DNA of 64,000 nt from a virus: IMG/VR virus record IMGVR_UViG_3300032297_000199, positions 18,345 through 82,344 of that record. The stretch is one strand, 5' to 3'. Each line of letters opens with the position of its first letter. Position 1 is the first letter of the stretch. This document shows positions 5,033-19,652 of the stretch, piece after piece. The notes under the pieces were generated by a model. The model saw only the letters and a program-made list of their open reading frames with translations. It had not been told where the DNA came from and ran no database searches. Made by a program: the position numbers and the translations under genes.

Positions 5033-5593
5033 ATGATAGGTTCTTTGAATTTAACAGGCCATATTTTAGCATCTCAGCCCAAGGGTCCTGACTCGTTATT
5101 TACGAGGGGTATTATAGTTGTAGCCAAGCACAATGACGAAGGTGCTTGGGGTCTCATGGTCAACAAACCGACCACAAGGATTTCTCTTAGCCAAGTAATG
5201 GCCTCTACTGGAATCGCATATTCTGGACAAGAATCAATATATGTCGGTGGCCCTGTTGACACGCATCGAGTGCATGTTATTCATTCTTTAGATTGGCAAA
5301 GTGCTGGGACAGTGCCAGTTACTTCTGAGATAGGAATTACCAGTGAAATGTCTGTAATGTTAGCAATTGCTGGCGGAGAAGGACCTAATTTGTTTAGGAC
5401 TTGTCTAGGAGTTACTGGTTGGGCAGCCGGTCAACTAGACGGAGAGTATAAAGGATTACCTCCGTGGAAGCCGGAACAACGATGGCTCGATGCTCCGGCT
5501 ACAATTGATGCTGTGTTTAATCTAAACAATGACGAACAATGGGAAAAGTGTATCGACATTGTAGCATCTAGTAAAGTATCAGCTTGGTTTTAA
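5033..5593 (+). CDS. yqgE: YqgE/AlgH (UPF0301) family protein
   Basis: H..EGAWGLMVNKP, YVGGPV and LG..GWAAGQL..E motifs. Confidence 0.88.
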   Translation: MIGSLNLTGHILASQPKGPDSLFTRGIIVVAKHNDEGAWGLMVNKPTTRISLSQVMASTGIAYSGQESIYVGGPVDTHRVHVIHSLDWQSAGTVPVTSEIGITSEMSVMLAIAGGEGPNLFRTCLGVTGWAAGQLDGEYKGLPPWKPEQRWLDAPATIDAVFNLNNDEQWEKCIDIVASSKVSAWF

Positions 5594-7050
5594 TCCTTTT
5601 CTGAATTAATACTTTTTAATAAATCTCTAATTTTTGAAGTATTAACAGTTCCTCGAACTTTTCCAATTCCTGTTCCCTGCGATGGATCGTCATCTCTTCC
5701 AGCATTAGGTGCTGGATTAAACGGATCAAATCCTTCTTTGGGTTGCGCTCTTTCAACTGTACTTGTTTTTTTCAACCCATCTAATATCATTGCACCGGGC
5801 TTACTTGCTTGTGTTGGACCTTCTTCTTCATCTAAATCTTTAATACGAAGACTTTCAACATCAAATTCTAAGTCAACTTTTTGTCCAACGCCACTACTAG
5901 AACGAGTTTTCATAAACTGGATTTGATACCGTCCTCGTTCACGCATTGCTCTACTGGTAAAAATACCAATAACATTATCAGCAGTTTGAATCTTTGATAA
6001 ACCGCCCGAGATATGGCTGTGATCGAATTCAATTTCTTCAACAGCACTACGATTTAACTGTGCGGCAGTTACTACAACAGCTTGAGTTTCCATAGCAAAG
6101 TTACGAAGCTCTTCTGAAACATATTTGTCTTTAACAAACAAGTCACTTGGGCTAACTTTAACAGAAAGCGGCATCATTAGGTCTAAGTAGTCCACTAAAA
6201 TAACATCAGGTTTTTTGCCTGTTTTTACTTGATATTCTTTAAGATATGCTCTTAAATCATTACAATTCTTCCCGGACGGCATGTATTTTATCTGCATTCC
6301 GCCTGCTCTCTTGCCAGTGAGCTTAACCTTCATTTCAACATCATCTAAACTTTTAAAAATGTCTTTAGATGCCACACCTGTGATCATACTGTCCACACGC
6401 ATACTAACCAATTCTTCACTAAGTTCGAATGTAAAATAAATTACATTCAAGCCTGCAAGCGCAAAGTTAACTCCTAAATTTGCCAAGAACAAACTCTTAC
6501 CACCGCCTGATCCTGCACACCAAATATTCAACTCGCCTCGTTTGAATCCGCCATATAGCTTACGATCAATGCTAGGATATCCTGTACTAATCTGTCCGTT
6601 GTTATCTTTTAATTTTAATAATCGAGCTCTAGGATCTTCAAAGTAGTCTGTACCCATATCACGACTAAGACTAATCTGAATAGCATCTTTAATTAATTTT
6701 TCTACAGGTCCGTATTCTGCTTTTTCTAATAGATCTGCAGATTTAAGAATAGCCCGTTCTAATCCTTTATGCCTACTAAAGCTCTCAAACTCATTCATTA
6801 ACCAATCGTAGTTTTCTTTAGGAACTTCAATTGCTGATTTAAAGTCTGTGTTACACGAAGAATTCACAATACTAAGTTCTGGCATGACCTTGTACTTGTC
6901 CACATACTCTGTGATAAACTTTGCAGATTCTTGTAAGCCCTTATCAAAGTTTTCTGGATCAAAAATATTTTGACAGCGGACAAATGTTTCTGCGTCTGCA
7001 AGAAACATCTCAAGGTAAAGTTTTTGTATTTCTTTATTATAGTTGGACAT
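5590..7050 (-). CDS. DnaB-like replicative helicase (T4 gp41-like)
   Basis: Walker A AGSGGGKS, FTFELSE, VILVDYLD Walker B, AQLNR, MKTR. Confidence 0.93.
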   Translation of the reverse strand: MSNYNKEIQKLYLEMFLADAETFVRCQNIFDPENFDKGLQESAKFITEYVDKYKVMPELSIVNSSCNTDFKSAIEVPKENYDWLMNEFESFSRHKGLERAILKSADLLEKAEYGPVEKLIKDAIQISLSRDMGTDYFEDPRARLLKLKDNNGQISTGYPSIDRKLYGGFKRGELNIWCAGSGGGKSLFLANLGVNFALAGLNVIYFTFELSEELVSMRVDSMITGVASKDIFKSLDDVEMKVKLTGKRAGGMQIKYMPSGKNCNDLRAYLKEYQVKTGKKPDVILVDYLDLMMPLSVKVSPSDLFVKDKYVSEELRNFAMETQAVVVTAAQLNRSAVEEIEFDHSHISGGLSKIQTADNVIGIFTSRAMRERGRYQIQFMKTRSSSGVGQKVDLEFDVESLRIKDLDEEEGPTQASKPGAMILDGLKKTSTVERAQPKEGFDPFNPAPNAGRDDDPSQGTGIGKVRGTVNTSKIRDLLKSINSEKD

Positions 7051-8032
7051 TCTCTAATTTCTTCTTTAATAGTTGTTGTTTAATTTCGCTCTTTTCTCGA
7101 TAGTGAAGTATCGAGAACAATGTGTAGAATTTTCCGTATTTCTTTACAGCGTCTGCTACATCTTTAATGTCTTCACTCCAGTCAGGCAAGCTAACTGTCC
7201 ACCCATGTTCTAACGCTACAGCAATCATTTTAGCACCTGGTTTGTCTCTATCCGGTACAACAATTACTTCTTTACCTAGCGCATTGATTCTAGCACATTG
7301 AGTTTCGTTCGGTTCGTTGTGCATTACTGCAACACCATCAATTGCAATGGCATCGAATTGACCTTCTACGACAATTACATATTGTTTATCACTAGTTTGT
7401 TTGTCTATGTTAAAAACATATCCAGGTTGTGTGTGCGTAAGGTACTTAGGTTTCCCGTCTACAATTTTTCGTCCAGTCCAGCCTACAATTCTACCATCTT
7501 GATAGAAAGGAATAATGACTCTATCTTTATACCCGTTTGCAGAACTCCAATGCCAATTATAATCTTCTAATGTCAGTTTTCGTTTATTAATTATATAGTC
7601 TATGACTGCTACGAATTCCTGATCTTCTAGACCGGCATTGATCCATTCTGCAACGGGTAAACAATCCTCAGGAAGTGGCCTATCCTCGAGTACAAAGCTA
7701 AGTTCTTTACTGGGCTTTGGTTGATCTTCTTTTTCTTTTAGGGCGTGGAGGCTAAGTTTTTGTATGTCTGTTTCTGGCATACCAAACCACTTGAACAATG
7801 ATTTAGTATTATTTGAAAACAACTTACCAGGAGTCCAACCTGCTTTGAAATTACAATTAAAACAATGATATTGAAATCCCTCGCCGCTCATTAATATGCC
7901 GCCGCGAAGTCGTGTATCTTGTTTCTCTCCTTTGTGTACACAGCAGGGAGCATTGAAACTAATCCAGCCACTAGGTGTCTGTTTTCGTTTAGGTGGTAAT
8001 ACTGCTTGAACTGCTGCCTGTATGAGATTCAT
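7037..8032 (-). CDS. DNA primase (T4 gp61-like)
   Basis: Zn-binding CCVH...CFNC, RVIIPF..G..VGWTGR, KYL, TOPRIM VEGQFDA and DRD. Confidence 0.9.
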   Translation of the reverse strand: MNLIQAAVQAVLPPKRKQTPSGWISFNAPCCVHKGEKQDTRLRGGILMSGEGFQYHCFNCNFKAGWTPGKLFSNNTKSLFKWFGMPETDIQKLSLHALKEKEDQPKPSKELSFVLEDRPLPEDCLPVAEWINAGLEDQEFVAVIDYIINKRKLTLEDYNWHWSSANGYKDRVIIPFYQDGRIVGWTGRKIVDGKPKYLTHTQPGYVFNIDKQTSDKQYVIVVEGQFDAIAIDGVAVMHNEPNETQCARINALGKEVIVVPDRDKPGAKMIAVALEHGWTVSLPDWSEDIKDVADAVKKYGKFYTLFSILHYREKSEIKQQLLKKKLENVQL

Positions 8033-8038
8033 ACAGTT

Positions 8039-8067
8039 ATTTTAGCTTCTATATTGAACCTTGTCAA
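8039..8067 (-). promoter_or_regulatory. Sigma70-type promoter, leaderless to primase
   Basis: TTGACA-N17-TAAAAT-N6-ATG, embedded in the 3' end of the upstream gene. Confidence 0.8.
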
Positions 8068-9169
8068 TTTTTCCGAGCGGAAAATACTCCGTGCCAGGAG
8101 TGGGGTTACCGGGCATTGCTGGGCTATAATAATTAGAAACTCCGTCCGAATCCGGAATCCAAAGAACACGAACATCACTCCAGTTTCCTACAGCATTTTG
8201 GTAAACAATTTTTGTAGTAGGTGTAGAATAAGTTAGTTCTGCAAGAGTAGTATAATTAGCAAATGTCCCCGGGTTGTTTTCCAAAGTTGCTTGAATTTTA
8301 ATAGTACCCTTAAACGCATTTAGATGCATAGCTATAGTTGTCAACTGATTAAGCTCAGGATACCCTCTTAAATTTCCTGTGTAGAAATTATATTTTAACT
8401 GATTTTGATTGTAGTATTTTTGCCAGCTAGTAATTTCTAATGTTGGCTTAGGAGTTGGAAATACATCGTGTGTTAATCGTAATTGACCATTAATTCCGTA
8501 GTACACATTACTATAAGTAGGGAGGTCTGCTCCGTCTGCATCTGTACTAGTAACGCTAAAATTATAGTAAGTGGATTCTAAATTTCTAGTGTCATTTTCA
8601 GTCAGTGTTAATAGTGCTAATCCTCTAGAACTAGTTGTTATACCGTCATCTGTAACTTCGACATTTTTTCGAACAATTAAAGTATTGTTAGTGCTGTCAA
8701 ACATATTAAACACATAATTCTGCCCAAATACAATACTAGTACCGCTTGATATAGGTTTAAGAATAGGACTTAAGAAACTATCAGTGTCTGGATTGTATGC
8801 AGGATTTTGATTATAAACAGTCACTTGTGTTCCGTTTATTTCAGATACATAAGTGCCAGGTTGGAATGTGGGGTCATCAGCGTTGTCTGCAGAAATAGTA
8901 GGAAACATTCCCACTTTAATATTAGTTGTAGTTGTTAGATTAAGGACAAAAGTTCCTGTAGTAATAGGGCCAGCAGTTGGAGCAATACCCTTAATCCTTA
9001 CAGGTTTCTGATCAGCATTCTTAAACTGAAGTTGAACTTTGTTTTTAAGTCCTTTTTGTATTTTTAATTCGCGCTGATACATAGTGTTATAGGCTCCCCT
9101 AATCCCTTCGTCCAAACTTAGTTGCAGTTCCAGAAGATTGGAATATAAATAGATTGGTAATTTCTGCAT
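8042..9169 (-). CDS. Hypothetical, probable virion structural (beta-rich) protein
   Basis: Long Thr/Asn-rich ORF. Start moved to ATG 9169, preceded by TAAATA-N7. Confidence 0.6.
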   Translation of the reverse strand: MQKLPIYLYSNLLELQLSLDEGIRGAYNTMYQRELKIQKGLKNKVQLQFKNADQKPVRIKGIAPTAGPITTGTFVLNLTTTTNIKVGMFPTISADNADDPTFQPGTYVSEINGTQVTVYNQNPAYNPDTDSFLSPILKPISSGTSIVFGQNYVFNMFDSTNNTLIVRKNVEVTDDGITTSSRGLALLTLTENDTRNLESTYYNFSVTSTDADGADLPTYSNVYYGINGQLRLTHDVFPTPKPTLEITSWQKYYNQNQLKYNFYTGNLRGYPELNQLTTIAMHLNAFKGTIKIQATLENNPGTFANYTTLAELTYSTPTTKIVYQNAVGNWSDVRVLWIPDSDGVSNYYSPAMPGNPTPGTEYFPLGKIDKVQYRS

Positions 9170-9187
9170 AGGTATATATTTATTGTA

Positions 9188-9571
9188 ATGACAACTAAGG
9201 ACGGCTTCGAAAAACAATTCCCTTTCATAACCTGTATTAAGACTACAGATAATGAATATATAGGAATCTTAATAAATCTAGATGACAATGTCACGAGTAT
9301 CTACGATCTAAGTACAATCAAGACTGATACAGAGCGTCAACTTTTTCTAGAAATGGGAGAAACTTGGTGGTGGGAGAGCAATAGAAAAATACCTATTAAT
9401 ATTTTTTTAAAGCAAGAAATGGTAGCATTCAGAGGGTACATCAAAACTTTTAATAGTAAAGATGTAGAGGTAGTATTCGGACCAATAGTAAATCTAAGCG
9501 AGATCGCAGAAAAAAGAGTTAAACGAAAAAGTATTCAACTCGTTAGAACTGTTAAGAAAATCCGTAGCTAA
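9188..9571 (+). CDS. Phage hypothetical protein (weak resemblance to T4 gp2 DNA end protector)
   Basis: TATAAATA at 9144-9151 upstream. The FPFI...YIGI...YIKTF pattern is only loosely gp2-like. Confidence 0.5.
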   Translation: MTTKDGFEKQFPFITCIKTTDNEYIGILINLDDNVTSIYDLSTIKTDTERQLFLEMGETWWWESNRKIPINIFLKQEMVAFRGYIKTFNSKDVEVVFGPIVNLSEIAEKRVKRKSIQLVRTVKKIRS

Positions 9572-10130
9572 TTCTTTCGCAAATTAGATTAAGTTGTAAT
9601 ACAATTAAATGGGCATAACCAACAGCATGACTTTTCTTAAAATAATAGGCGTCTTCTGTTTTAATCCAGACTTCATTGTCGAGCGCCTTGAAACCTTTTT
9701 CCTTACATACTGGGATGAGGTGCTTTTTACCAGGCCTAATCAAAGCAAGGACAATGGCTAGTTCTTCAATACTAGCAGGCTTTAATTCTTTCATCAAATT
9801 GTGATAACCGTTAATATGGAATAGTTGATCACATACTTCTTTTTCGTACATTAAATCCCACAGCGGTTCTACACTAAGCAATTGATTAATATGTTCTTCG
9901 CTAGTCACTCCCGAATAGGCGCTAACATTTAAAAAGTCTATTTTAAAATAACCTCTTTCTTCTGCTTGTTCATACGGGATAGATGCCAAACCTGTTAACG
10001 GGTTAACTGGAATTTCGTGACAATACACTCCAGTATTGTGCTTCTTTCCGTCTGGCAAACTTGCAGGAATATGCTTAATAATTTTAAGCACTTCTGTCCT
10101 ATCTCGGAAGTCAATATCGATATCAGGCAA
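9552..10130 (-). CDS. dnaE: Miniature DNA polymerase III alpha (DnaE)-like catalytic fragment
   Basis: Ordered motifs PDIDIDF, KHNTGVY, GYFKIDFL, ALIRPG and YYFKKSHAVGY in 192 aa. Confidence 0.85.
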   Translation of the reverse strand: MPDIDIDFRDRTEVLKIIKHIPASLPDGKKHNTGVYCHEIPVNPLTGLASIPYEQAEERGYFKIDFLNVSAYSGVTSEEHINQLLSVEPLWDLMYEKEVCDQLFHINGYHNLMKELKPASIEELAIVLALIRPGKKHLIPVCKEKGFKALDNEVWIKTEDAYYFKKSHAVGYAHLIVLQLNLICERISYGFS

Positions 10131-10818
10131 TTCCGGCCTCCTTACATATTTCTTTTACTAAAGCAGTGTCACCTGGATTATCTTTAAACTTCTTCAGCCA
10201 GAATGCAACATCAAATGCAGGTGTAATCAATTCTAATTGATCGTCGTTAAACTTATTCACCATTTCTTTTCCGCTCTTACAGTTAAGTACGATCCAGGGA
10301 GATACAAGACCGTTTCTAATATCCTGTACTGCTCTGTTTAAATTGACATACAAGAAGTAATGTTCAAATGCCGCTCCACTTGTATCAGCCCAATCCATCA
10401 TATGTTGTATGCTTCGTTGAACAGCAGACTCTACTGGCTCAACTTTTAGTAAGTCATACAAATACTTTTCGTAAAGTTCATCCCTGCACCAATGATCTAA
10501 TTTAACTCCACTCTTAATTACATATACAACAAATCGTTCAGGATATAGCGGATTTACATTATTGATGAAACTTCCGAATTTTACAAACGCATTATAGAAA
10601 GAACTCTTACAAAACTCTTCATATGTTTTTTGTTTTCTAGAATTTTGTGTTAATTTATAAAACTGATCAAATGCATAAAAACCTGTCTGTACTCTTTTCT
10701 CATCTTTTTGCAAGACGCGGCGTTTAGGCTCACACATGTGAGCAATTAAAGTTTTTTCTTTCATAAACTTTTTGCCACAATGTACACAGTCGTAAGGTTG
10801 ATCAGCCAAAGTTATCAC
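10123..10818 (-). CDS. Hypothetical protein with N-terminal zinc finger
   Basis: YDCVHCGKKF....L..HMC; coupled to both neighbours. Confidence 0.7.
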   Translation of the reverse strand: MITLADQPYDCVHCGKKFMKEKTLIAHMCEPKRRVLQKDEKRVQTGFYAFDQFYKLTQNSRKQKTYEEFCKSSFYNAFVKFGSFINNVNPLYPERFVVYVIKSGVKLDHWCRDELYEKYLYDLLKVEPVESAVQRSIQHMMDWADTSGAAFEHYFLYVNLNRAVQDIRNGLVSPWIVLNCKSGKEMVNKFNDDQLELITPAFDVAFWLKKFKDNPGDTALVKEICKEAGIA

Positions 10819-11575: not shown

Positions 11576-12079
11576 TTACCAACATTTAGTGTAATCTACA
11601 ATCTCGCTTTGGCGGCTAACTTCTTTAACAAAGAACGCACAAGGAGGTGCCTCTCCTGCTCGAAGGGGAGTTGTTAATAGTTGTCCAGGTTTCATTTTGG
11701 GAAAATACCATTTAACATCTTGATACACATTAATGATATCAATCTCATGAAATTCTGGTCTAAAACTACTTAATGGATTAAAACAAAATGTCTTAAATCC
11801 TCTATCATTCAAACTTGTTAAAGGTAGCACTTCCATGTCCGGACCTTCCGGATCGCCAACAATAGTACACCAGTCTAACGGCATGTTAACTGTATATGGA
11901 CCTACTTTAAGTACTGCCGCCGGTGCAGTAAATGATTCTAAAAAGATTAGAGGAATATAAAAATAGTCAGGATTTTGAGGATCACTGTTATCAAATACTG
12001 AGAATCGTAAGTCGTCCTCTAATTCCTCTGGGAGGTCATTGAGATAATATGTTTTGTTTTCTAATACTAGTATTTGCAT
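11576..12079 (-). CDS. Hypothetical protein, possible degenerate Hint-like beta fold
   Basis: Beta-rich ORF with TAATG coupling to uvsW; the fold call is a visual impression only. Confidence 0.6.
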   Translation of the reverse strand: MQILVLENKTYYLNDLPEELEDDLRFSVFDNSDPQNPDYFYIPLIFLESFTAPAAVLKVGPYTVNMPLDWCTIVGDPEGPDMEVLPLTSLNDRGFKTFCFNPLSSFRPEFHEIDIINVYQDVKWYFPKMKPGQLLTTPLRAGEAPPCAFFVKEVSRQSEIVDYTKCW

Positions 12080-13560
12080 TAATACTTTACCTTTTCTATT
12101 GTAAATGGGTATTGAGCTTCTTTGTAGAATCTCTTTCGTTCTGTTAAGTGTTTTTTAGCATATTTCGAACTTGCTGTCAAGTCCCAGATCTGGACGAAGT
12201 CCTTGTCGTCAGCTTTTCTAATGCCTCGCCCAATACTTTGTATAACCCGTGTAAAGCTCTTTCCGGACTCCAAAAGAACCAGATTAAAAATCCTAGGAAT
12301 ATTAATGCCCACAGCGGCCACACCGTAAGTCGCCACAATAATCTTGTTAGTGCTTGTTTTAATTTCGTCATATTCTTCTTTTCGATCTTTAGTTTTTACA
12401 GACCCAGAAATAAACGCAACATCCGGTTCTTCTTTTTGTATGCTGAATAACTCACTTAAATTTGTTTGTAAAAAATTACCACTTTCAATTCTATCTACTA
12501 GAACTAGGGTGTTTCCTGAGTTAGAAATTTGTTTAATTAGTTTAGAAATCCATGTCATTCTATCAGTATCAGTGACTAGGAATTTTAATTCAGAAGCGTA
12601 ACTCTCAAATTCTTTCCACTCTGCTGTTTGAATAATGTTTACATGACATTGACTCAATACACCTTTTTCTTGTAACTCATGTGCGGCAACTCTATGAACT
12701 ACTTCACCTAAGCTAACTTTGATATTTTGGAAGTCAATATCGTCTTTAGGAATGGTACCAGTTAATCCCCAACGAATAGGCGCATTAGCAATGTTTTGTG
12801 TAAGTAATCTTTTTAAGACATCTGCCTTTGCCATGTGAACTTCGTCAACCATAACTGTAGACACGCCATCTAAGAATTCTGCTAGGCTTAACAAGTCATC
12901 ATTATCCTTGGATTTTTTGTCTAAAATATTGAGACTCTGCCAAGTACAAATAGTGTGTGTTCTTCCTAGTTCTTTTCTATCACCGTAGTACACACCTACA
13001 TCTAATTTACAGTTAATAAAGTCTTCTTCTGTTTGTTCAACTAAACTCTTGTTAGGGACAATGGTTATTGTTCGACCATATTTTTCACAGATTTTACTCA
13101 AAGTTGCAGTGGTAATTGTCTTACCAAAGCCTGTGGCAATTTCTTGAATACACTGAGGATTCTCAAGAAACTTATTTACTACTTCGACCTGATCATCACG
13201 AAGTCTAATCTTCTCTCCGGCAAATCTATGTCCTTCCGGCCATGTTTGATCACCCCAAAAATCTTCGGAAATTTTGGTGAAATTTAGTGGTACTGAAACA
13301 CGGTGATCTTCGACGATTGGATCGTAGCCAGCACTAACCAGTTCTTCTACCACCTCAGGTAATAGACTCATGTATGTTGCGCCGCCTAGACCGAAGAAGC
13401 TGGTGCATCCATCCCACCTACCTAGTTTGTAAGCAGGAAGATATCGAGCTTTTTGGTCAAAATATTTGAATTTTTTGACCAGATTTTTCCTGGTATCTAA
13501 ATCCAGGTTTTCAATTTTAACATTGACCTCGTCTTTTATGACAATTCTACATGTGGCCAC
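12079..13560 (-). CDS. uvsW: SF2 DNA helicase UvsW
   Basis: LRDDQ Q-motif, ATGFGKT, DEVH, GLTGT, QSIGRGIR. Confidence 0.92.
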   Translation of the reverse strand: MATCRIVIKDEVNVKIENLDLDTRKNLVKKFKYFDQKARYLPAYKLGRWDGCTSFFGLGGATYMSLLPEVVEELVSAGYDPIVEDHRVSVPLNFTKISEDFWGDQTWPEGHRFAGEKIRLRDDQVEVVNKFLENPQCIQEIATGFGKTITTATLSKICEKYGRTITIVPNKSLVEQTEEDFINCKLDVGVYYGDRKELGRTHTICTWQSLNILDKKSKDNDDLLSLAEFLDGVSTVMVDEVHMAKADVLKRLLTQNIANAPIRWGLTGTIPKDDIDFQNIKVSLGEVVHRVAAHELQEKGVLSQCHVNIIQTAEWKEFESYASELKFLVTDTDRMTWISKLIKQISNSGNTLVLVDRIESGNFLQTNLSELFSIQKEEPDVAFISGSVKTKDRKEEYDEIKTSTNKIIVATYGVAAVGINIPRIFNLVLLESGKSFTRVIQSIGRGIRKADDKDFVQIWDLTASSKYAKKHLTERKRFYKEAQYPFTIEKVKY

Positions 13561-14756
13561 TTAGTAACTCCCTTTGTTGCTTTGCTATTATACACAATTA
13601 TATCAGGGAAGTCTTGTAAAAAGGATGTCAGCGTGTAATGAGCGGTGTTCATTGAACCTAAATTGATAACACTATTAAACTGTATTCCGCTCTTGATCAC
13701 AGGCTTAGGTAATTTTTGACTCACAAACACAAATTTAGTGTCTTCGCTTATTGGACTGTTAAGTCCATAATCTTTCACTAATTCGTTAAACATCCTATCA
13801 TTACCGTTCTCAGTCCTAAACATCACAGAAACCTGATTTTTCTGGAAATTTTGTGAATTTAAGAAACTCCACCATTTTTTTAGGTTAGCAATTTCTGTGC
13901 CTGCTGGTATGATAACCAAGCAAGGACTAGCATATCTAACTATGTCTGAAAAATGTTCAATTTCATACTTTTCCGAATCAACCTCTAATCTTATCTTCCC
14001 AGTAGTAGACAAGAATTTTCTGGTTAATTTGGGAATTTCCAGGTTTTTTATGGTATCATTGATATCTTCGTCCCATACACTAATACCGTACCGTTTAGCA
14101 TGGAAAAGAGTTTCTAATAAACCTAAACCTCTCGGTTGGGGAATCGAAGGGTGTGTATTAACATATGAAAATTCTTCACCGTTTGATGTCAAACGAGGCA
14201 CATATCGGTCAAAATCTGCCGAAATTTCTTCAAGTTGAGACCATATTTCGTCAAATTTTTCACAGGTAGCAAAACCAGTAGGAACTAGTACATTCTTTAT
14301 GTAATCCACACTTCCTTCGGTTAAAGAAAACATCCAAGCCTTAGCTTCACTGTCCCAAGTAGCATTGTCCGGAGCTGACCTACTGTTCCATGCCCGTAGC
14401 TCAGATAGCAATTTTTCATCGTATGGGAAGGAAACTTTGATAGATTTCAGTCTATCTTGTTCAACCACTTCGACCTTTTTAGACTGTATGGCAATTTTTC
14501 GGATAGGTAGCCTAAAAGTTGGATTGTCAGTAAAAACAGTGATATCCTTCCCGAGGACTACTGATAGCTGGACTCTATATTTTTTACAAAATTTAACTGC
14601 TAGTGAGGATTGCTTCTCACTTAGTCCGTAACCTCGAAGAATTTGGTCAGAAAAACTGGAGAGGAGAGGTTGATCTCTGGTCTCTATGTCCAGAGGTGGT
14701 AGAAAAAGATATTGACCGCTACTTGAAAGACGATCAATTAGGTCTTCAATGTACAT
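13536..14756 (-). CDS. Hypothetical protein (possible HARP-like segment)
   Basis: 406-aa ORF between uvsY and uvsW; VSFPYD...WDSEAKAW segment. Confidence 0.65.
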   Translation of the reverse strand: MYIEDLIDRLSSSGQYLFLPPLDIETRDQPLLSSFSDQILRGYGLSEKQSSLAVKFCKKYRVQLSVVLGKDITVFTDNPTFRLPIRKIAIQSKKVEVVEQDRLKSIKVSFPYDEKLLSELRAWNSRSAPDNATWDSEAKAWMFSLTEGSVDYIKNVLVPTGFATCEKFDEIWSQLEEISADFDRYVPRLTSNGEEFSYVNTHPSIPQPRGLGLLETLFHAKRYGISVWDEDINDTIKNLEIPKLTRKFLSTTGKIRLEVDSEKYEIEHFSDIVRYASPCLVIIPAGTEIANLKKWWSFLNSQNFQKNQVSVMFRTENGNDRMFNELVKDYGLNSPISEDTKFVFVSQKLPKPVIKSGIQFNSVINLGSMNTAHYTLTSFLQDFPDIIVYNSKATKGVTKWPHVELS

Positions 14757-17672: not shown

Positions 17673-19652
17673 TTATTTTTTCAATCGTCCGTCTTTCTCT
17701 GCACTCTGTAACATGTCAATACGATCACGGTATCCTGCAATTCCGGGTTTAATATCTTTGGCAGCTTTCTTTTCACCTGCTGTTGGATTTTTAACATGCT
17801 TCATTGTAGTTTTGGATTGATGACTTTCTTCACTCATTCCTAGTTCTTTCTTTTTACGAGCTAGGCCTGCAGAGCTAGTTGGGCTCTTTGTTTTCTCGTC
17901 ATCGAGATCTTTAGTAGACATTTTCCAGTCGCCGCCTTTTTCCTTACGCTTGAATGCAGGAATTTGACTCTTGTCTGGACCGCTTTCTTTTAGCCCGGCA
18001 AGTTTTAAAATACTTTCAAATGCTTGTTGAGTTTGACTTTGTTGTGTCAAATGTGATACTAATCGCTCTGCTAATGCACCAGCTTTGTCTCCAAATTGTT
18101 TCTTGATATGTGTAACTACACCTGTCTCACCTTTTGGAAACTTGCCAGTAGTTGAATCATAAAAACTCTTAACAACTTCAGCAATCTCTTTAGAACTAAC
18201 GCCTGGCTCTCGACGAGGCTCTTCGTTTTCCATATCCATTTGTTGAGCTGGTTCACCTGCAGGGGCTGCTGGAGCAGGAGCCGCTGGTGCAGCCGCTGCT
18301 GGAGGAGCTTCTGGAGCTGGCGCAGAACCTGCTCCGATTTCTTGCGCTGCCTGCGGGTCATTCTTTTCTAACCAAGCAAGGATAGTTTCAGTTGGTTCAG
18401 CATCTGGATTTACTTTTGATAATTCTCGTAAAGCATTTGCTAAATCTTTATCAGTAATACCTATATCAGCTAGTGCTGAAATAGCACTAGTACCATCGAT
18501 GCCTAATGTCAAACCGTCGTCTAATAACTGTTTTAAATCTGCAGGTTCAAATGTACCTTCGGCAATATGGTCAGCCCATGATTCAAACGCATCAAAAGCT
18601 TCAGCAGTGTGATCATCGCATGTGCAAGGATCTTCTTTGCACTCGGGGCAAATATCGCTACCTTCTGCAACTAAATCTTCTAGGTCTACTTCTCCACCTT
18701 CTTGCATGATAGAATATAATAGAGGAAAAATACCAGTCAAATCTTCTTCAAATTGTTTGATTGTAAATCTATCTTTATAATCTGCAATTGTAACTTCGTC
18801 TAATGCAATATCACCTACAGGTTTAAAATTTTCAACCCATTGCTGATAATAACCTTGCTTGCTTAGGTTTGTACATTCAACTCTTAATTGTTCTAATTTT
18901 TGTAAACTTTTTTCAACAATATCTTTTGTGCTTTCATTTACAAATCCTGCTCTAGCAATATGTCGTCTAAAGCTAGCTAATTGTAAAATGTTCTCGCTCA
19001 TGTTAACAATAGCACTACCGATATCATCGTACGGACGACCACCGTTTGCTACATGTCGTTGCATTGCCTTTGCACCAGCTAAATGGCTAACTGGATACTT
19101 GAATCTTTCTCCGTCACTGTTTTCGATAAACATAGCGTCAATGTGGCGGCTTCTTGCACCTGGCGATTCGTTAACCGCCTTCGAATGACGGATAATTAAT
19201 TTTGTATTTTCTAAAGTACGATAACTTGTTTTGCTGCTACCGAAGTATTGTGATTCGTTCATATTATTTTCCTTGGTTCCATTAGTGGCGAGGTATTGGA
19301 AATCGTTCTTGTTTAAATTTCCCTTCATAATGTCTCTTGTATCAAATCGCATCATTCTGCGTTTGGCAAAGAAACGCATTTCCTTTAGGAAATCGTACCA
19401 CATGCCTTTAGTGATAGAGTCACTATCTTCGGTAATTCCTTGACCGTAGTAAACTTTGAGTGTACCTACATCGTTGATGCTGATACTTACTCTGCCCAGA
19501 TTGTTACCTTCTATGGCAAAGTCAAAGTCAAAAAATCTTGCGTCTTTAGGACTGTTCGTGACATTCCCGTCCTGATCACCCATTTCTAAATTAGTAAAAC
19601 GGCTGCGAACTTTGTCAAATACATCCTGAGCTATAATTTCAATGATATTCAT
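17673..19652 (-). CDS. Large hypothetical protein, probable head/internal virion protein
   Basis: TATAAATA-N5-ATG; follows terminase; acidic middle, Pro/Ala linker and basic C-terminal modules. Confidence 0.65.
   Translation of the reverse strand: MNIIEIIAQDVFDKVRSRFTNLEMGDQDGNVTNSPKDARFFDFDFAIEGNNLGRVSISINDVGTLKVYYGQGITEDSDSITKGMWYDFLKEMRFFAKRRMMRFDTRDIMKGNLNKNDFQYLATNGTKENNMNESQYFGSSKTSYRTLENTKLIIRHSKAVNESPGARSRHIDAMFIENSDGERFKYPVSHLAGAKAMQRHVANGGRPYDDIGSAIVNMSENILQLASFRRHIARAGFVNESTKDIVEKSLQKLEQLRVECTNLSKQGYYQQWVENFKPVGDIALDEVTIADYKDRFTIKQFEEDLTGIFPLLYSIMQEGGEVDLEDLVAEGSDICPECKEDPCTCDDHTAEAFDAFESWADHIAEGTFEPADLKQLLDDGLTLGIDGTSAISALADIGITDKDLANALRELSKVNPDAEPTETILAWLEKNDPQAAQEIGAGSAPAPEAPPAAAAPAAPAPAAPAGEPAQQMDMENEEPRREPGVSSKEIAEVVKSFYDSTTGKFPKGETGVVTHIKKQFGDKAGALAERLVSHLTQQSQTQQAFESILKLAGLKESGPDKSQIPAFKRKEKGGDWKMSTKDLDDEKTKSPTSSAGLARKKKELGMSEESHQSKTTMKHVKNPTAGEKKAAKDIKPGIAGYRDRIDMLQSAEKDGRLKK

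Follow-up and report, generated by a model that had tools for sequence, protein, structure and literature searches.

A gene of an uncultured phage encoding the probable C-terminal unit of a predicted two-chain minimal family C DNA polymerase

Introduction

According to a computational description by Iyer, Anantharaman, Krishnan, Burroughs and Aravind (Viruses 13:63, 2021; PMC7824862), the group 2.2 jumbo phages encode a split DNA polymerase III alpha (Pol III alpha) of minimal size, which accompanies a family B polymerase in this group. In our literature searches, this 2021 computational description was the only account found, and no bench activity of the split enzyme was recorded. For the E. 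coli Pol III alpha, PMC8485763 gives D401, D403 and D555 as the active-site residues and H760 as a proposed steric gate. In Bacillus subtilis, DnaE is presented in PMC5627055 as a second replisomal polymerase, which briefly extends the primer before the hand-off to PolC.

In the present work, we analyzed a gene for a 192-aa protein in a window of 64,000 nucleotides (positions 18,345 to 82,344 of the IMG/VR virus record IMGVR_UViG_3300032297_000199, which has a length of 82,344 bp and is 23% complete). The preliminary description of this DNA had proposed a naturally split family C polymerase with its GS-bearing half encoded elsewhere, which matches the enzyme described in PMC7824862 as well as the separate N-halves that we recovered in five relatives. 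We conclude that the 192-aa gene very probably encodes the C-terminal unit of a minimal family C polymerase (Pol III alpha/DnaE-like), predicted to consist of two chains, of the T4-like group 2.2 jumbo phages.

Results

The 192-aa gene and its family

As presented in Table 1, the 192-aa protein is encoded by an intact ORF that begins at the catalytic DxD and holds five DnaE motifs in order. It is a stand-alone protein, with a Shine-Dalgarno sequence and a start of its own, and the other DnaE domains gave no Pfam match. The GGAGGCCGGAA-TTG arrangement was also present in locus L007, which is 96% identical, and in 71 of the 79 related loci a start codon coincided exactly with the MPD position.

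Table 1. Positions of the features discussed, in window coordinates or in residues of the 192-aa protein.
Feature	Position	Strand	Details
C-terminal (metal-/template-binding) unit gene of split minimal Pol III alpha	9552..10130	(-)	192 aa, intact ORF, TTG start
TTG start codon of the 192-aa ORF	10130-10128	(-)	
Shine-Dalgarno-like GGAGG	10137..10141	(-)	6 nt 5' of the TTG start; read from sequence
PDIDIDF	residues 2-8		192-aa protein
KKHNTGV	residues 29-35		192-aa protein
FKIDFL	residues 62-67		192-aa protein
IRPGKK	residues 131-136		192-aa protein
FKKSHAVGYA	residues 164-173		192-aa protein
D3-I-D5-I-D7 codons, DxD metal ligands	10110..10124	(-)	equivalent to E. coli D401, D403; model aligns from E. 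coli residue 400
K63-I-D65 codons, third catalytic Asp	9936..9944	(-)	equivalent to E. coli K553-F-D555
R132-P133-G134 codons, finger motif RPG	9729..9737	(-)	conservation and alignment to E. coli LFRPG
F164-KKSHAVGYA-173 codons, finger helix with K166-S167-H168	9612..9641	(-)	equivalent to E. coli K758-S759-H760
231-aa gene, weak C2H2-like zinc finger (PHROG 11058, unknown function)	10123..10818	(-)	upstream; stop overlaps the C-half start by 8 nt
Convergent 127-aa gene (PHROG 11637, unknown function)	9188..9571	(+)	shares 20 nt with the C-half gene at their 3' ends
DnaB/gp41-type helicase	5590-7050	(-)	Pfam DnaB_C
DnaG-type primase	7037-8032	(-)	Pfam DNAG_N, sub-threshold
UvsW-type helicase	12079..13560	(-)	Pfam ResIII, DEAD, Helicase_C; synteny

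The protein matched PHROG 11778 'DNA polymerase' with an E value of 1.9e-60, its residues 3-186 lying on positions 8-194 of the 197 positions of the profile. Homologues were found in 96 phage records and covered at least 80% of the length in 94 of them; all the matches listed were jumbo phages (Phosso, Atu_ph07, the PA5oct group, XacN1 and the 121Q/PBECO4 group). Identity was about 40-47% with the copies of cultured phages and 66-74% with the C-halves of two related records, G001 and G002. The family is very large, with at least 7955 protein clusters of similar length from environmental phages. In a search of the PDB with a profile of 89 homologues, nine out of nine matches were Pol III alpha chains (best E value 1.3e-5). 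Among the curated models, Pfam DNA_pol3_finger (PF17657) remained just sub-threshold (21.1 bits for a cut-off of 22) and TIGR00594 gave 19.6 bits for a cut-off of 434. At E <= 1, no Pfam family for PHP, thumb, HhH, OB or intein was detected in the 192-aa protein, nor did PF07733 match; together with the GRGS searches, this bears out the preliminary description, which had noted the absence of GRGS, PHP, thumb, OB and intein. Taken together, the 192-aa protein is the C-terminal unit of the known "minimal, split DNA polymerase III alpha" of the group 2.2 jumbo phages.

Catalytic residues and selection

The reading of five DnaE motifs in an ORF starting at MPD, already made in the preliminary description, holds by the motif positions, PHROG 11778, the PDB profile and the fold match, and lies far outside what chance would give. 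Conservation was analyzed over 89 homologues. D3 and D5 were invariant (89/89) and D7 was present in 87; K63 and D65, the latter being the third catalytic Asp, were likewise found in all 89, and a profile alignment with residues 538-641 of the E. coli alpha chain placed KIDFL on KFDFL. In the finger motif, P133 was kept in 89 of the 89 sequences and R132 in 87, the RPG aligning both to the E. coli LFRPG, which ends at residue 641, and to the RPG of one bacterial DnaE. The last motif, FKKSHAVGYA, aligned to the E. coli FNKSHSAAYAL within residues 740-771, with H168, the counterpart of the proposed E. coli steric gate against ribonucleotides, in 88/89 homologues, K165 in 82/89 and K166 in 70/89. 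In comparison with L007, dN/dS was 0.059 (26 synonymous and 7 non-synonymous differences), and for those pairs whose dS was 0.05-1.5 (113 out of 3160) the median was 0.12. Purifying selection acts strongly on the catalytic Asp residues, on K63, on RPG and on the K-S-H helix.

The 192-aa protein has about one sixth of the length of a cellular DnaE and the curated DnaE models score it below their thresholds, as might be expected of a decaying remnant of a full-length dnaE from phage or host. The conservation data refute this reading, to which we give practically no credit: the similar-length clusters number in the thousands and 149 of the best 150 representatives had at most 233 aa, so that homologues are not full length; the three catalytic Asp residues D3, D5 and D65 are invariant; the start is conserved; dN/dS, which the preliminary description had named as a check, lies at 0.06-0.12; and the fold model described below is very confident. 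Full-length homologues and loss of the catalytic Asp residues had been named in the preliminary description as refuting findings, and neither was encountered.

The GRGS-bearing N-half in related phages

A separate N-half gene (PHROG 11127) was located 31-224 kb from the C-half gene in 121Q, Atu_ph07 and Phosso, the three cultured phages searched, as well as in the related records G001 and G002. The N-halves of these relatives have 169-180 aa, with a C-terminal end of the form ...WGVGRGSSV.S...EFL[KR], and stop just before the DxD strand. The motif WG.GRGSSV.S was invariant in 45 out of 45 N-halves. In Atu_ph07 the match is at 240,841-241,083; Attai et al. (2018) name a 'DNA polymerase III alpha gp316' in this phage, which may be this N-half.

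The preliminary description had looked to the rest of the genome for a GRGS fragment and a family B polymerase (PolB); both were found in relatives, and neither in the 82-kb, 23%-complete record of the phage itself. For the GRGS-bearing unit, the window and the whole 82,344-bp record were searched with PF07733, with the N-half protein of a relative and with PHROG 11127, the last having positive controls in two relatives, and gave no match; a degenerate GRGS DNA pattern matched once, for a chance expectation of 3.9. Since the record is only 23% complete, the blank searches for N-half and PolB are not evidence of absence. The pairing of the window protein with an N-half is therefore argued from its relatives, namely G001, G002 and the cultured phages.

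Predicted fold of the two halves

The AlphaFold model of the C-half had a pLDDT of 95.7 and a pTM of 0.87. Its residues 1-190 superposed on residues 400-784 of the E. coli Pol III alpha (2hnh) with Z 9.8 and an rmsd of 3.9 A over 184 residues, the alignment stopping at E. coli residue 784. In the structural list of the C-half, family C polymerases filled the first 13 rows, and Z fell to 3.1 in the row that followed. Foldseek alone gave borderline E values (C-half, 1e-3; N-half, 0.047), and the VIA re-alignments are second looks at Foldseek's own lists rather than an independent search. The fingers of the C-half are shortened, about 90 residues (E. coli 641-740) being missing, and there is no thumb: from the DxD strand to the region aligned with E. 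coli residue 538, the C-half has about 44 residues and E. coli about 131, which leaves no room for a thumb.

For the N-half, residues 76-172 of the model aligned with E. coli residues 279-393 (Z 10.1-11.2, rmsd 2.2-2.4 A, 93-96 residues), and its first 75 residues had no counterpart among the solved polymerases. Both halves were also placed on one bacterial DnaE, a protein of 1160 aa: the N-half mapped to residues 294-402, with an hhalign probability of 96.5, and the C-half to residues 546-644, with an hhalign probability of 72.

Evidence for the pairing of the two halves

PHROG 11127 and PHROG 11778 occur together in one chain in three protein clusters (375-376 aa), rare natural fusions in which the TIGR00594 match runs continuously across the junction. 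No mention of such fused forms was met in the available text of Iyer et al. (2021; PMC7824862). A word-index search for longer fused relatives (337-2000 aa) found none; an exhaustive search of representatives later found one fused form, so that the blank of the word index reflects its limited sensitivity. Among viral contigs no locus of a fused form was recovered, and metagenome contigs searched with the fused forms yielded one locus with a stand-alone C-half and two loci with an ordinary bacterial dnaE (L181 and L182), L181 being used only as a reference for full-length DnaE.

We computed a quick tree of 103 C-half sequences, comprising the 89 rows of the homologue alignment A1, the C-parts of three fused proteins and the 11 stand-alone sequences most closely related to these proteins. 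The fused proteins formed a clade (SH-aLRT 100) inside a set of 14 rows that were otherwise stand-alone C-halves, in a tree that comes from a quick search only, is midpoint-rooted for display and has 51 of its 100 inner branches open. This placement hints that the fusion may be secondary to the stand-alone halves. A mixed alignment of a fused protein with N-halves and C-halves (A3) was discarded, MAFFT having put the N-halves on the C-terminal region.

The window C-half was co-folded with the N-half of G002, a stand-in from a relative and not the window phage's own protein. The ipSAE was 0.91 in each of three runs and 0.00 for the best of three controls; the runs agreed in at least 96% of the contacts, with a partner pLDDT of 90. 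Of 80 solved complexes, 58 attained the mark used for a pass, as did 2 of 110 mismatched pairs; these counts hold only roughly because custom alignments were used. In the co-fold model, W137-G138 of the N-half lie against residues 6-8 of the C-half. Since both parts share one chain in the solved Pol III alpha structures, a pass in the co-fold may reflect this likeness rather than binding.

Neighbouring genes and the replication block

The preliminary description had considered the coupled neighbours as possible accessory parts of the polymerase, a suggestion for which we obtained no support: no DnaE domain was matched in them and the tight coupling to the zinc-finger gene is a minority arrangement. 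We weighed the related reading that the 192-aa protein acts alone or with these neighbours (the 231-aa zinc-finger protein and a 159-aa protein) instead of a distant N-half. It can appeal to the stop/start overlap of 8 nt and to the presence of the zinc-finger gene upstream of the C-half in 76 of the 80 related loci. Against it, the two genes abut (gap <= 20 nt) in 23 of these 76 loci only, the gap being 150-3538 nt in the other 53, and the neighbours match no polymerase family: neither the zinc-finger protein nor the 159-aa protein gave anything above a Pfam or NCBIfam cut-off, their PHROG matches were of unknown function only, and a protein atlas search with the zinc-finger neighbour returned no usable match. 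In addition, the C-half by itself lacks the nucleotidyltransferase GS loop, and the natural fusions link it to the N-half and not to a neighbour. We consider action alone or with the neighbours very unlikely, and retain the N-half as the probable partner.

On the other side of the gene, the convergent 127-aa gene occurred in 77 of the 80 related loci and overlapped the end of the C-half gene in 75 of these 77 (projected coordinates). The T4-like setting claimed in the preliminary description was confirmed by Pfam matches to a DnaB-type helicase, a DnaG-type primase and a UvsW-type helicase. The primase-helicase gene order is the same in Phosso, Atu_ph07, 121Q and the IMG/VR loci; the UvsW-type gene lies near the head of a co-directional run of which the C-half is the last gene. 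Between positions 8800 and 16000, promoter-like sites showed no enrichment (18 observed for a shuffle mean of 23.3), and TATAAATA occurred 3 times in the window for 8.4 expected. These scans give no indication of the timing of expression.

PolB (PF00136) had no match in the phage's own 82-kb, 23%-complete record. It was present in four of the five related records searched, namely G001 (94% complete), G002, Atu_ph07 and 121Q, the miss being G003 (40% complete); these four are all the relatives that have both halves and were searched for PolB. Could the split enzyme be the sole replicative polymerase of the phage, displacing a T4-type gp43? The blank in the 82-kb record would agree with this; the incompleteness of that record, the four relatives carrying PolB next to both halves, and the PolB reported alongside in group 2.2 by Iyer et al. 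(PMC7824862) speak against it, and we regard it as extremely unlikely. In these relatives, the mini enzyme is an addition to the family B polymerase, not its replacement.

Discussion

In the mechanism that we propose, an N-half of about 170 aa, encoded tens to hundreds of kb away, would supply the rest of the palm. The two chains would join non-covalently into one Pol-beta-type palm, in which the GS loop of the N-half would hold the triphosphate and the C-half would hold the metals and the sugar gate, the product being a small DNA polymerase that would use dNTPs. Because there is no thumb, PHP, clamp-binding or OB domain, such an enzyme should be distributive and dependent on partners. Our best guess is a second, specialised replisome polymerase beside PolB, which may extend primase-made primers over a short distance or fill gaps during recombination-dependent replication; such a role in primer extension or repair is suggested by the position of the gene in the UvsW-primase-helicase block. 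Taken in full, the proposal is that a thumb-less heterodimer of about 360 residues is an active, dNTP-selective polymerase which, in a two-polymerase replisome, extends primers or fills recombination gaps before handing over to the family B replicase, and this we put forward as tentative and somewhat doubtful.

The two chains might instead form a repurposed Pol-beta-type nucleotidyltransferase, adding untemplated tails, making or extending primers or acting on another substrate, and not a templated DNA polymerase. The loss of thumb, clamp-binding, HhH and OB parts, the shortened fingers, the 75-residue N-half extension unmatched in solved polymerases, the family B replicase already present in related genomes and the absence of a recorded activity in our literature searches would all suit such an enzyme. 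Selection has nevertheless kept the DnaE-specific RPG and K-S-H helix, beyond a generic DxD...D, and these are what a dNTP-selecting, template-reading enzyme needs; the gene moreover sits in a conserved replication block. We judge a repurposed nucleotidyltransferase rather improbable.

Should the two chains form an active polymerase, they would define the minimal catalytic core of a bacterial-type replicase and indicate that the active site of such a fold can be built across two polypeptides. No templated polymerase of family C smaller than this heterodimer would then be known, and it would serve, in line with the suggestion of Iyer et al. (PMC7824862), as a working model of the ancestral core. 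The rare natural fusions offer a convenient single-chain version of the split enzyme.

Comparison with known systems

The window gene is ordinary for its phage group, and the kind of split enzyme to which it belongs was already described from sequence in 2021. With the enzyme described by Iyer et al. (2021) it shares the family of the C-unit (PHROG 11778), the architecture, in which the Mg- and template-binding unit stands alone and begins at the DxD, the T4-like replication core and, in relatives, the distant N-terminal NTP-binding unit (PHROG 11127) and the family B polymerase. Nothing essential differs; the window copy belongs to an uncultured phage, and the fragment does not include the N-half of this phage.

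With bacterial DnaE (E. coli alpha, 2hnh; Thermus aquaticus alpha, 2hpi/3e0d), the phage protein has homologous palm and finger elements, the Asp triad, RPG and the K-S-H helix in common. The phage enzyme differs in being made of two chains, with the break falling after the GS helix and before the DxD strand, so that the complete palm is not found in one chain and the GS loop is, in relatives, on a separate protein. It is also without the PHP, thumb, clamp-binding/HhH, OB and tau-binding parts and about 90 finger residues, for a total of about 360 aa compared to more than 1100 aa.

In cyanobacteria, DnaE-n and DnaE-c are encoded by two distant genes as split-intein parts, which are trans-spliced to a full-length chain. 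The phage system is similar in that a family C polymerase comes from two genes lying far apart. No intein/Hint family was detected in the C-half (Pfam E <= 1) or in three N-halves (E <= 0.01), and the end of the N-half and the start of the C-half abut exactly on the DnaE sequence, from which it follows that the predicted assembly must be non-covalent.

Finally, B. subtilis DnaE provides a possible functional analogy, as a family C enzyme working beside another main replicase; the phage gene would likewise act next to PolB, near the primase. The B. subtilis enzyme is full length and its role was shown at the bench, whereas the phage analogy is drawn from gene position only. If the heterodimer is active in a two-polymerase replisome, this arrangement would be analogous to the DnaE/PolC pair of Firmicutes or to Pol alpha/delta of eukaryotes.

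The C-half is a conserved part of a family C polymerase palm

The 192-aa protein of window 9552-10130 (hereafter the C-half) comprises the DxD, third-Asp and finger elements of a family C palm and is both conserved and under selection. As presented in the table, the five DnaE motifs announced in the preliminary description were all present, in the same order. The ORF starts with TTG, with a GGAGG 6 nt upstream, and overlaps by 8 nt the TGA end of an upstream 231-aa ORF. Against Pfam, only a sub-threshold match to DNA_pol3_finger was observed and no PHP, HhH, OB or intein family, in agreement with the absence of PHP and OB parts and of an intein described earlier. The protein was assigned to PHROG 11778 ('DNA polymerase', 197-position profile, E 1.9e-60).

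Coordinates of the features in the window, in the C-half and in related loci
Feature	Position	Strand	Remark
C-half ORF	9552-10130	-	uninterrupted, 192 aa
PDIDIDF	C-half residues 2-8
KKHNTGV	C-half residues 29-35
FKIDFL	C-half residues 62-67
IRPGKK	C-half residues 131-136
FKKSHAVGYA	C-half residues 164-173
DnaB/gp41-type helicase	5590-7050		Pfam
DnaG-type primase	7037-8032		Pfam
391-aa gene	8042-9217	-	PHROG matches weak
TATAAATA word	9144-9151		37 nt 5' of the ATG of the 127-aa gene
127-aa gene	9188-9571	+	PHROG 11637 (unknown function)
UvsW-type helicase	12079-13560		Pfam
406-aa gene	13536-14756	-	no Pfam family matched
N-half gene neighbourhoods inspected	L087:780-2007, L088:1207-2366, L004-L006

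Using tblastn, a homologue was detected in 96 phage records, over at least 80% of its length in 94 of them; among the matches listed, identity was 40-47% and all the phages were jumbo phages (Phosso, Atu_ph07, the PA5oct group, XacN1/XaC1 and the 121Q/PBECO4 group). Within a large protein collection, matching clusters (105-336 aa) numbered at least 7955, with lengths of 188-204 aa among the 120 matches listed. Full-length homologues, and hence a decayed gene, had been considered earlier; an exhaustive phmmer search of 1.84 billion representatives returned 405 matches at E <= 1e-3, and 149 of the best 150 were of 233 aa or less. Shortness is hence the normal state of this family and no truncation.

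Among 89 homologues with 31-84% identity to the window's protein, D3, D5, K63, D65 and P133 were invariant, including the three catalytic Asp (D3, D5, D65) whose conservation was to be checked, while H31, G34 and H168 were each kept in 88 and R132 and D7 in 87. Comparison with the 96%-identical locus L007 gave 26 synonymous and 7 non-synonymous differences (dN/dS 0.059), and for the 113 pairs, out of 3160, whose dS lay between 0.05 and 1.5, the median dN/dS was 0.12 (range 0.03-0.27). Across 79 loci, ORF lengths were 186-198 aa and the start codon fell exactly at the window's Met1 position in 71. Invariant catalytic residues, low dN/dS, and kept start position and length therefore led us to reject the reading of the C-half as a pseudogene.

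A separate N-half and a family B polymerase occur in relatives

The main inference of the preliminary description, a split polymerase whose GS-bearing half is encoded elsewhere, was right: a separate GRGS-bearing unit (the N-half, PHROG 11127) was found in five relatives. A PF07733 search detected it as a stand-alone ORF of 177-180 aa in all three cultured relatives (121Q, Atu_ph07 and Phosso), at model positions 16-98 of 260 and with the C-terminal end ...GVGRGSSVASY...LD..EFL[NKE]. The two IMG/VR relatives of greatest length have it likewise: G001 (345 kb), which is 94% complete and whose C-half shares 66% identity with that of the window, and G002 (221 kb), whose C-half shares 74%. The motif W-G-x-G-R-G-S-S-V-x-S was invariant in 45 of 45 N-halves. 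Among the cultured phages, the N-half and C-half are separated by about 31 kb (121Q), 182 kb (Atu_ph07) and 224 kb (Phosso); in the two IMG/VR relatives the separation is about 175 kb (G001) and about 152 kb (G002).

A family B polymerase (PolB) co-occurred in four of the five records searched (G001, G002, Atu_ph07 and 121Q); no match was obtained in the fifth, G003, a record 40% complete. In the phage collection, the two halves shared host groups with nearly equal record counts (N-half/C-half: Escherichia 34/34, Pseudomonas 11/11, Klebsiella 10/11, Salmonella 8/8, Erwinia 8/8, Xanthomonas 4/4), the N-half search also catching phages with full-length DnaE. The record of the window itself, an 82,344-bp fragment (CheckV 23% complete), yielded neither N-half nor PolB, and therefore we infer the pairing in this phage rather than see it.

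Downstream of the N-half gene come, in all five relatives inspected, first a gene for a small protein with a ...NARGD..G..GG motif (PHROG 14844, unknown function) and then a GroES-like co-chaperonin/head-morphogenesis gene (PHROGs 931 and 3188). In Atu_ph07, the PolB match (212336-213688; loci L093, L094) is divided between two separate open frames, of 418 and 578 aa, in line with the two 'DNA polymerases gp276, gp277' of Attai et al. (2018), so that PolB itself may be split in this phage.

Natural fusions and co-folding suggest that the halves may work together

Two indirect lines bear on whether the halves work together. The first consists of natural fusions: P0164 (375 aa) and two clusters of 376 aa, 78-81% identical to it. 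In the fused proteins, PHROG 11127 matches residues 8-180 and PHROG 11778 residues 190-374, and a single TIGR00594 match spans the junction (residues 92-206 on model positions 302-417). The 16 matches of P0164 of 206-657 aa comprised 3 fused proteins, 11 stand-alone C-halves and two PHP-bearing DnaE pieces of 540-551 aa. In a quick, unfinished tree, the clade of fused proteins lay among stand-alone C-halves, a hint that the fusion was secondary. The fused proteins (P0164, P0271 and P0272; 375-376 aa, not in the window) are encoded on contigs of 2.4-5.9 kb in ENA and Logan, and a pattern scan of IMG/VR recovered none.

The second line is a co-fold of the window's C-half with the G002 N-half, a stand-in from a relative. 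The ipSAE was 0.91 in each of three runs and 0.00 for the best of three controls; among solved complexes 58 of 80 reach the mark, against 2 of 110 mismatched pairs, a rough calibration since own alignments were used. The runs shared at least 96% of contacts, with a partner pLDDT of 90. The predicted model sets the strand preceding the GRGS loop (N-half W137-G138) next to the DIDF strand (C-half residues 6-8). The pass may reflect likeness to solved Pol III alpha chains, because these contain both parts.

The two halves would assemble non-covalently into one Pol-beta-type active site. H168 is the counterpart of E. coli H760, which Vaisman et al. (PMC8485763) propose as the steric gate, calling it invariant in Pol III alpha, and its retention suggests that the assembled enzyme would use dNTPs. 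That the two chains form a nucleotidyltransferase other than a polymerase seems improbable to us. The predicted two-chain polymerase should be distributive, because thumb, clamp-binding, HhH and OB parts are missing.

The C-half gene lies in a T4-type replication block

The T4-like replisome setting described earlier was borne out by helicase, primase and UvsW genes around the C-half gene. The order (UvsW, p167, p97, p159, Zn-finger protein, C-half, convergent 127-aa gene, structural protein, primase, helicase) is shared by 121Q, Atu_ph07, Phosso and 80 IMG/VR loci. Because of this UvsW-primase-helicase context, our guess would be a second, specialised polymerase beside PolB, acting in primer extension or recombination-linked gap filling.

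The coupled neighbours had been suggested as the missing polymerase parts, which our results did not support. The 231-aa upstream protein gave only sub-threshold C2H2 zinc-finger matches and a PHROG of unknown function, and the 159-aa protein nothing above any cut-off. Of 80 related loci, 76 have the Zn-finger gene upstream of the C-half, with a spacer (L007-L086) of 0 or negative, i.e. abutting, in 23, of 150-390 nt in 30 and of 666-3538 nt in 23. The spacer between homologues of window 10123-10818 and 9552-10130 is a variable spot across these loci.

The 127-aa gene, present in 77 of 80 related loci, overlaps the C-half 3' end by 20 nt, and projected coordinates place an overlap in 75 of the 77. 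The TATAAATA word is not enriched in the window. Counterparts of the 391-aa gene, between the C-half block and the primase, are annotated 'virion structural protein' in 121Q and Atu_ph07; thus a structural gene is embedded in the replication block. The 406-aa gene lies upstream of UvsW, and its positional counterpart in 121Q is annotated 'DNA polymerase exonuclease subunit'.

Comparison with known polymerases

A split minimal Pol III alpha has already been described from sequence by Iyer et al. 2021 (PMC7824862), who suggest a possible cooperation with the B-family enzyme, in making one strand or in repair. Our literature search turned up neither a later paper on this enzyme nor a bench test, and the accessible text of the Atu_ph07 paper (Attai et al. 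2018) goes no further than noting predicted alpha and epsilon subunits of Pol III. The interest is modest and lies in the biochemistry of a very abundant, minimal, two-chain predicted polymerase core, whose testing the rare fused forms could ease.

Over residues 1-190, the predicted model of the C-half (pLDDT 95.7, pTM 0.87) matches E. coli alpha 400-784 (2hnh) with Z 9.8 and rmsd 3.9 A over 184 residues, and it also aligns with Thermus alpha 461-841; the 13 best rows were all family C polymerases, the next having Z 3.1. For the N-half model (pLDDT 84.5), the alignment of residues 76-172 to E. coli 279-393 had Z 10.1-11.2 and rmsd 2.2-2.4 A over 93-96 residues. Residues 1-75 (L088:1207-1431), unmatched in the solved family C structures compared, are a phage-specific extension. 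N-half residues 1-31 and 65-78 touch the C-half in the predicted co-fold.

Aligned by hhalign to a full-length bacterial DnaE (L181, 1160 aa), the N-half covers 294-402 with a probability of 96.5 and the C-half 546-644 with a probability of 72. The sequence of this DnaE, ...ERFLNPERVTMPDIDVDF..., places the phage cut in a short loop, after the helix that follows the GS motif and before the DxD strand. By profile alignment, C-half residues 52-138 correspond to E. coli 538-641, and residues 150-180 to 740-771. From this spacing, compared to E. coli alpha, the C-half lacks about 87 residues between the DxD and third-Asp strands (the thumb site), has fingers shorter by about 87 residues, and ends at the equivalent of E. 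coli residue 784.
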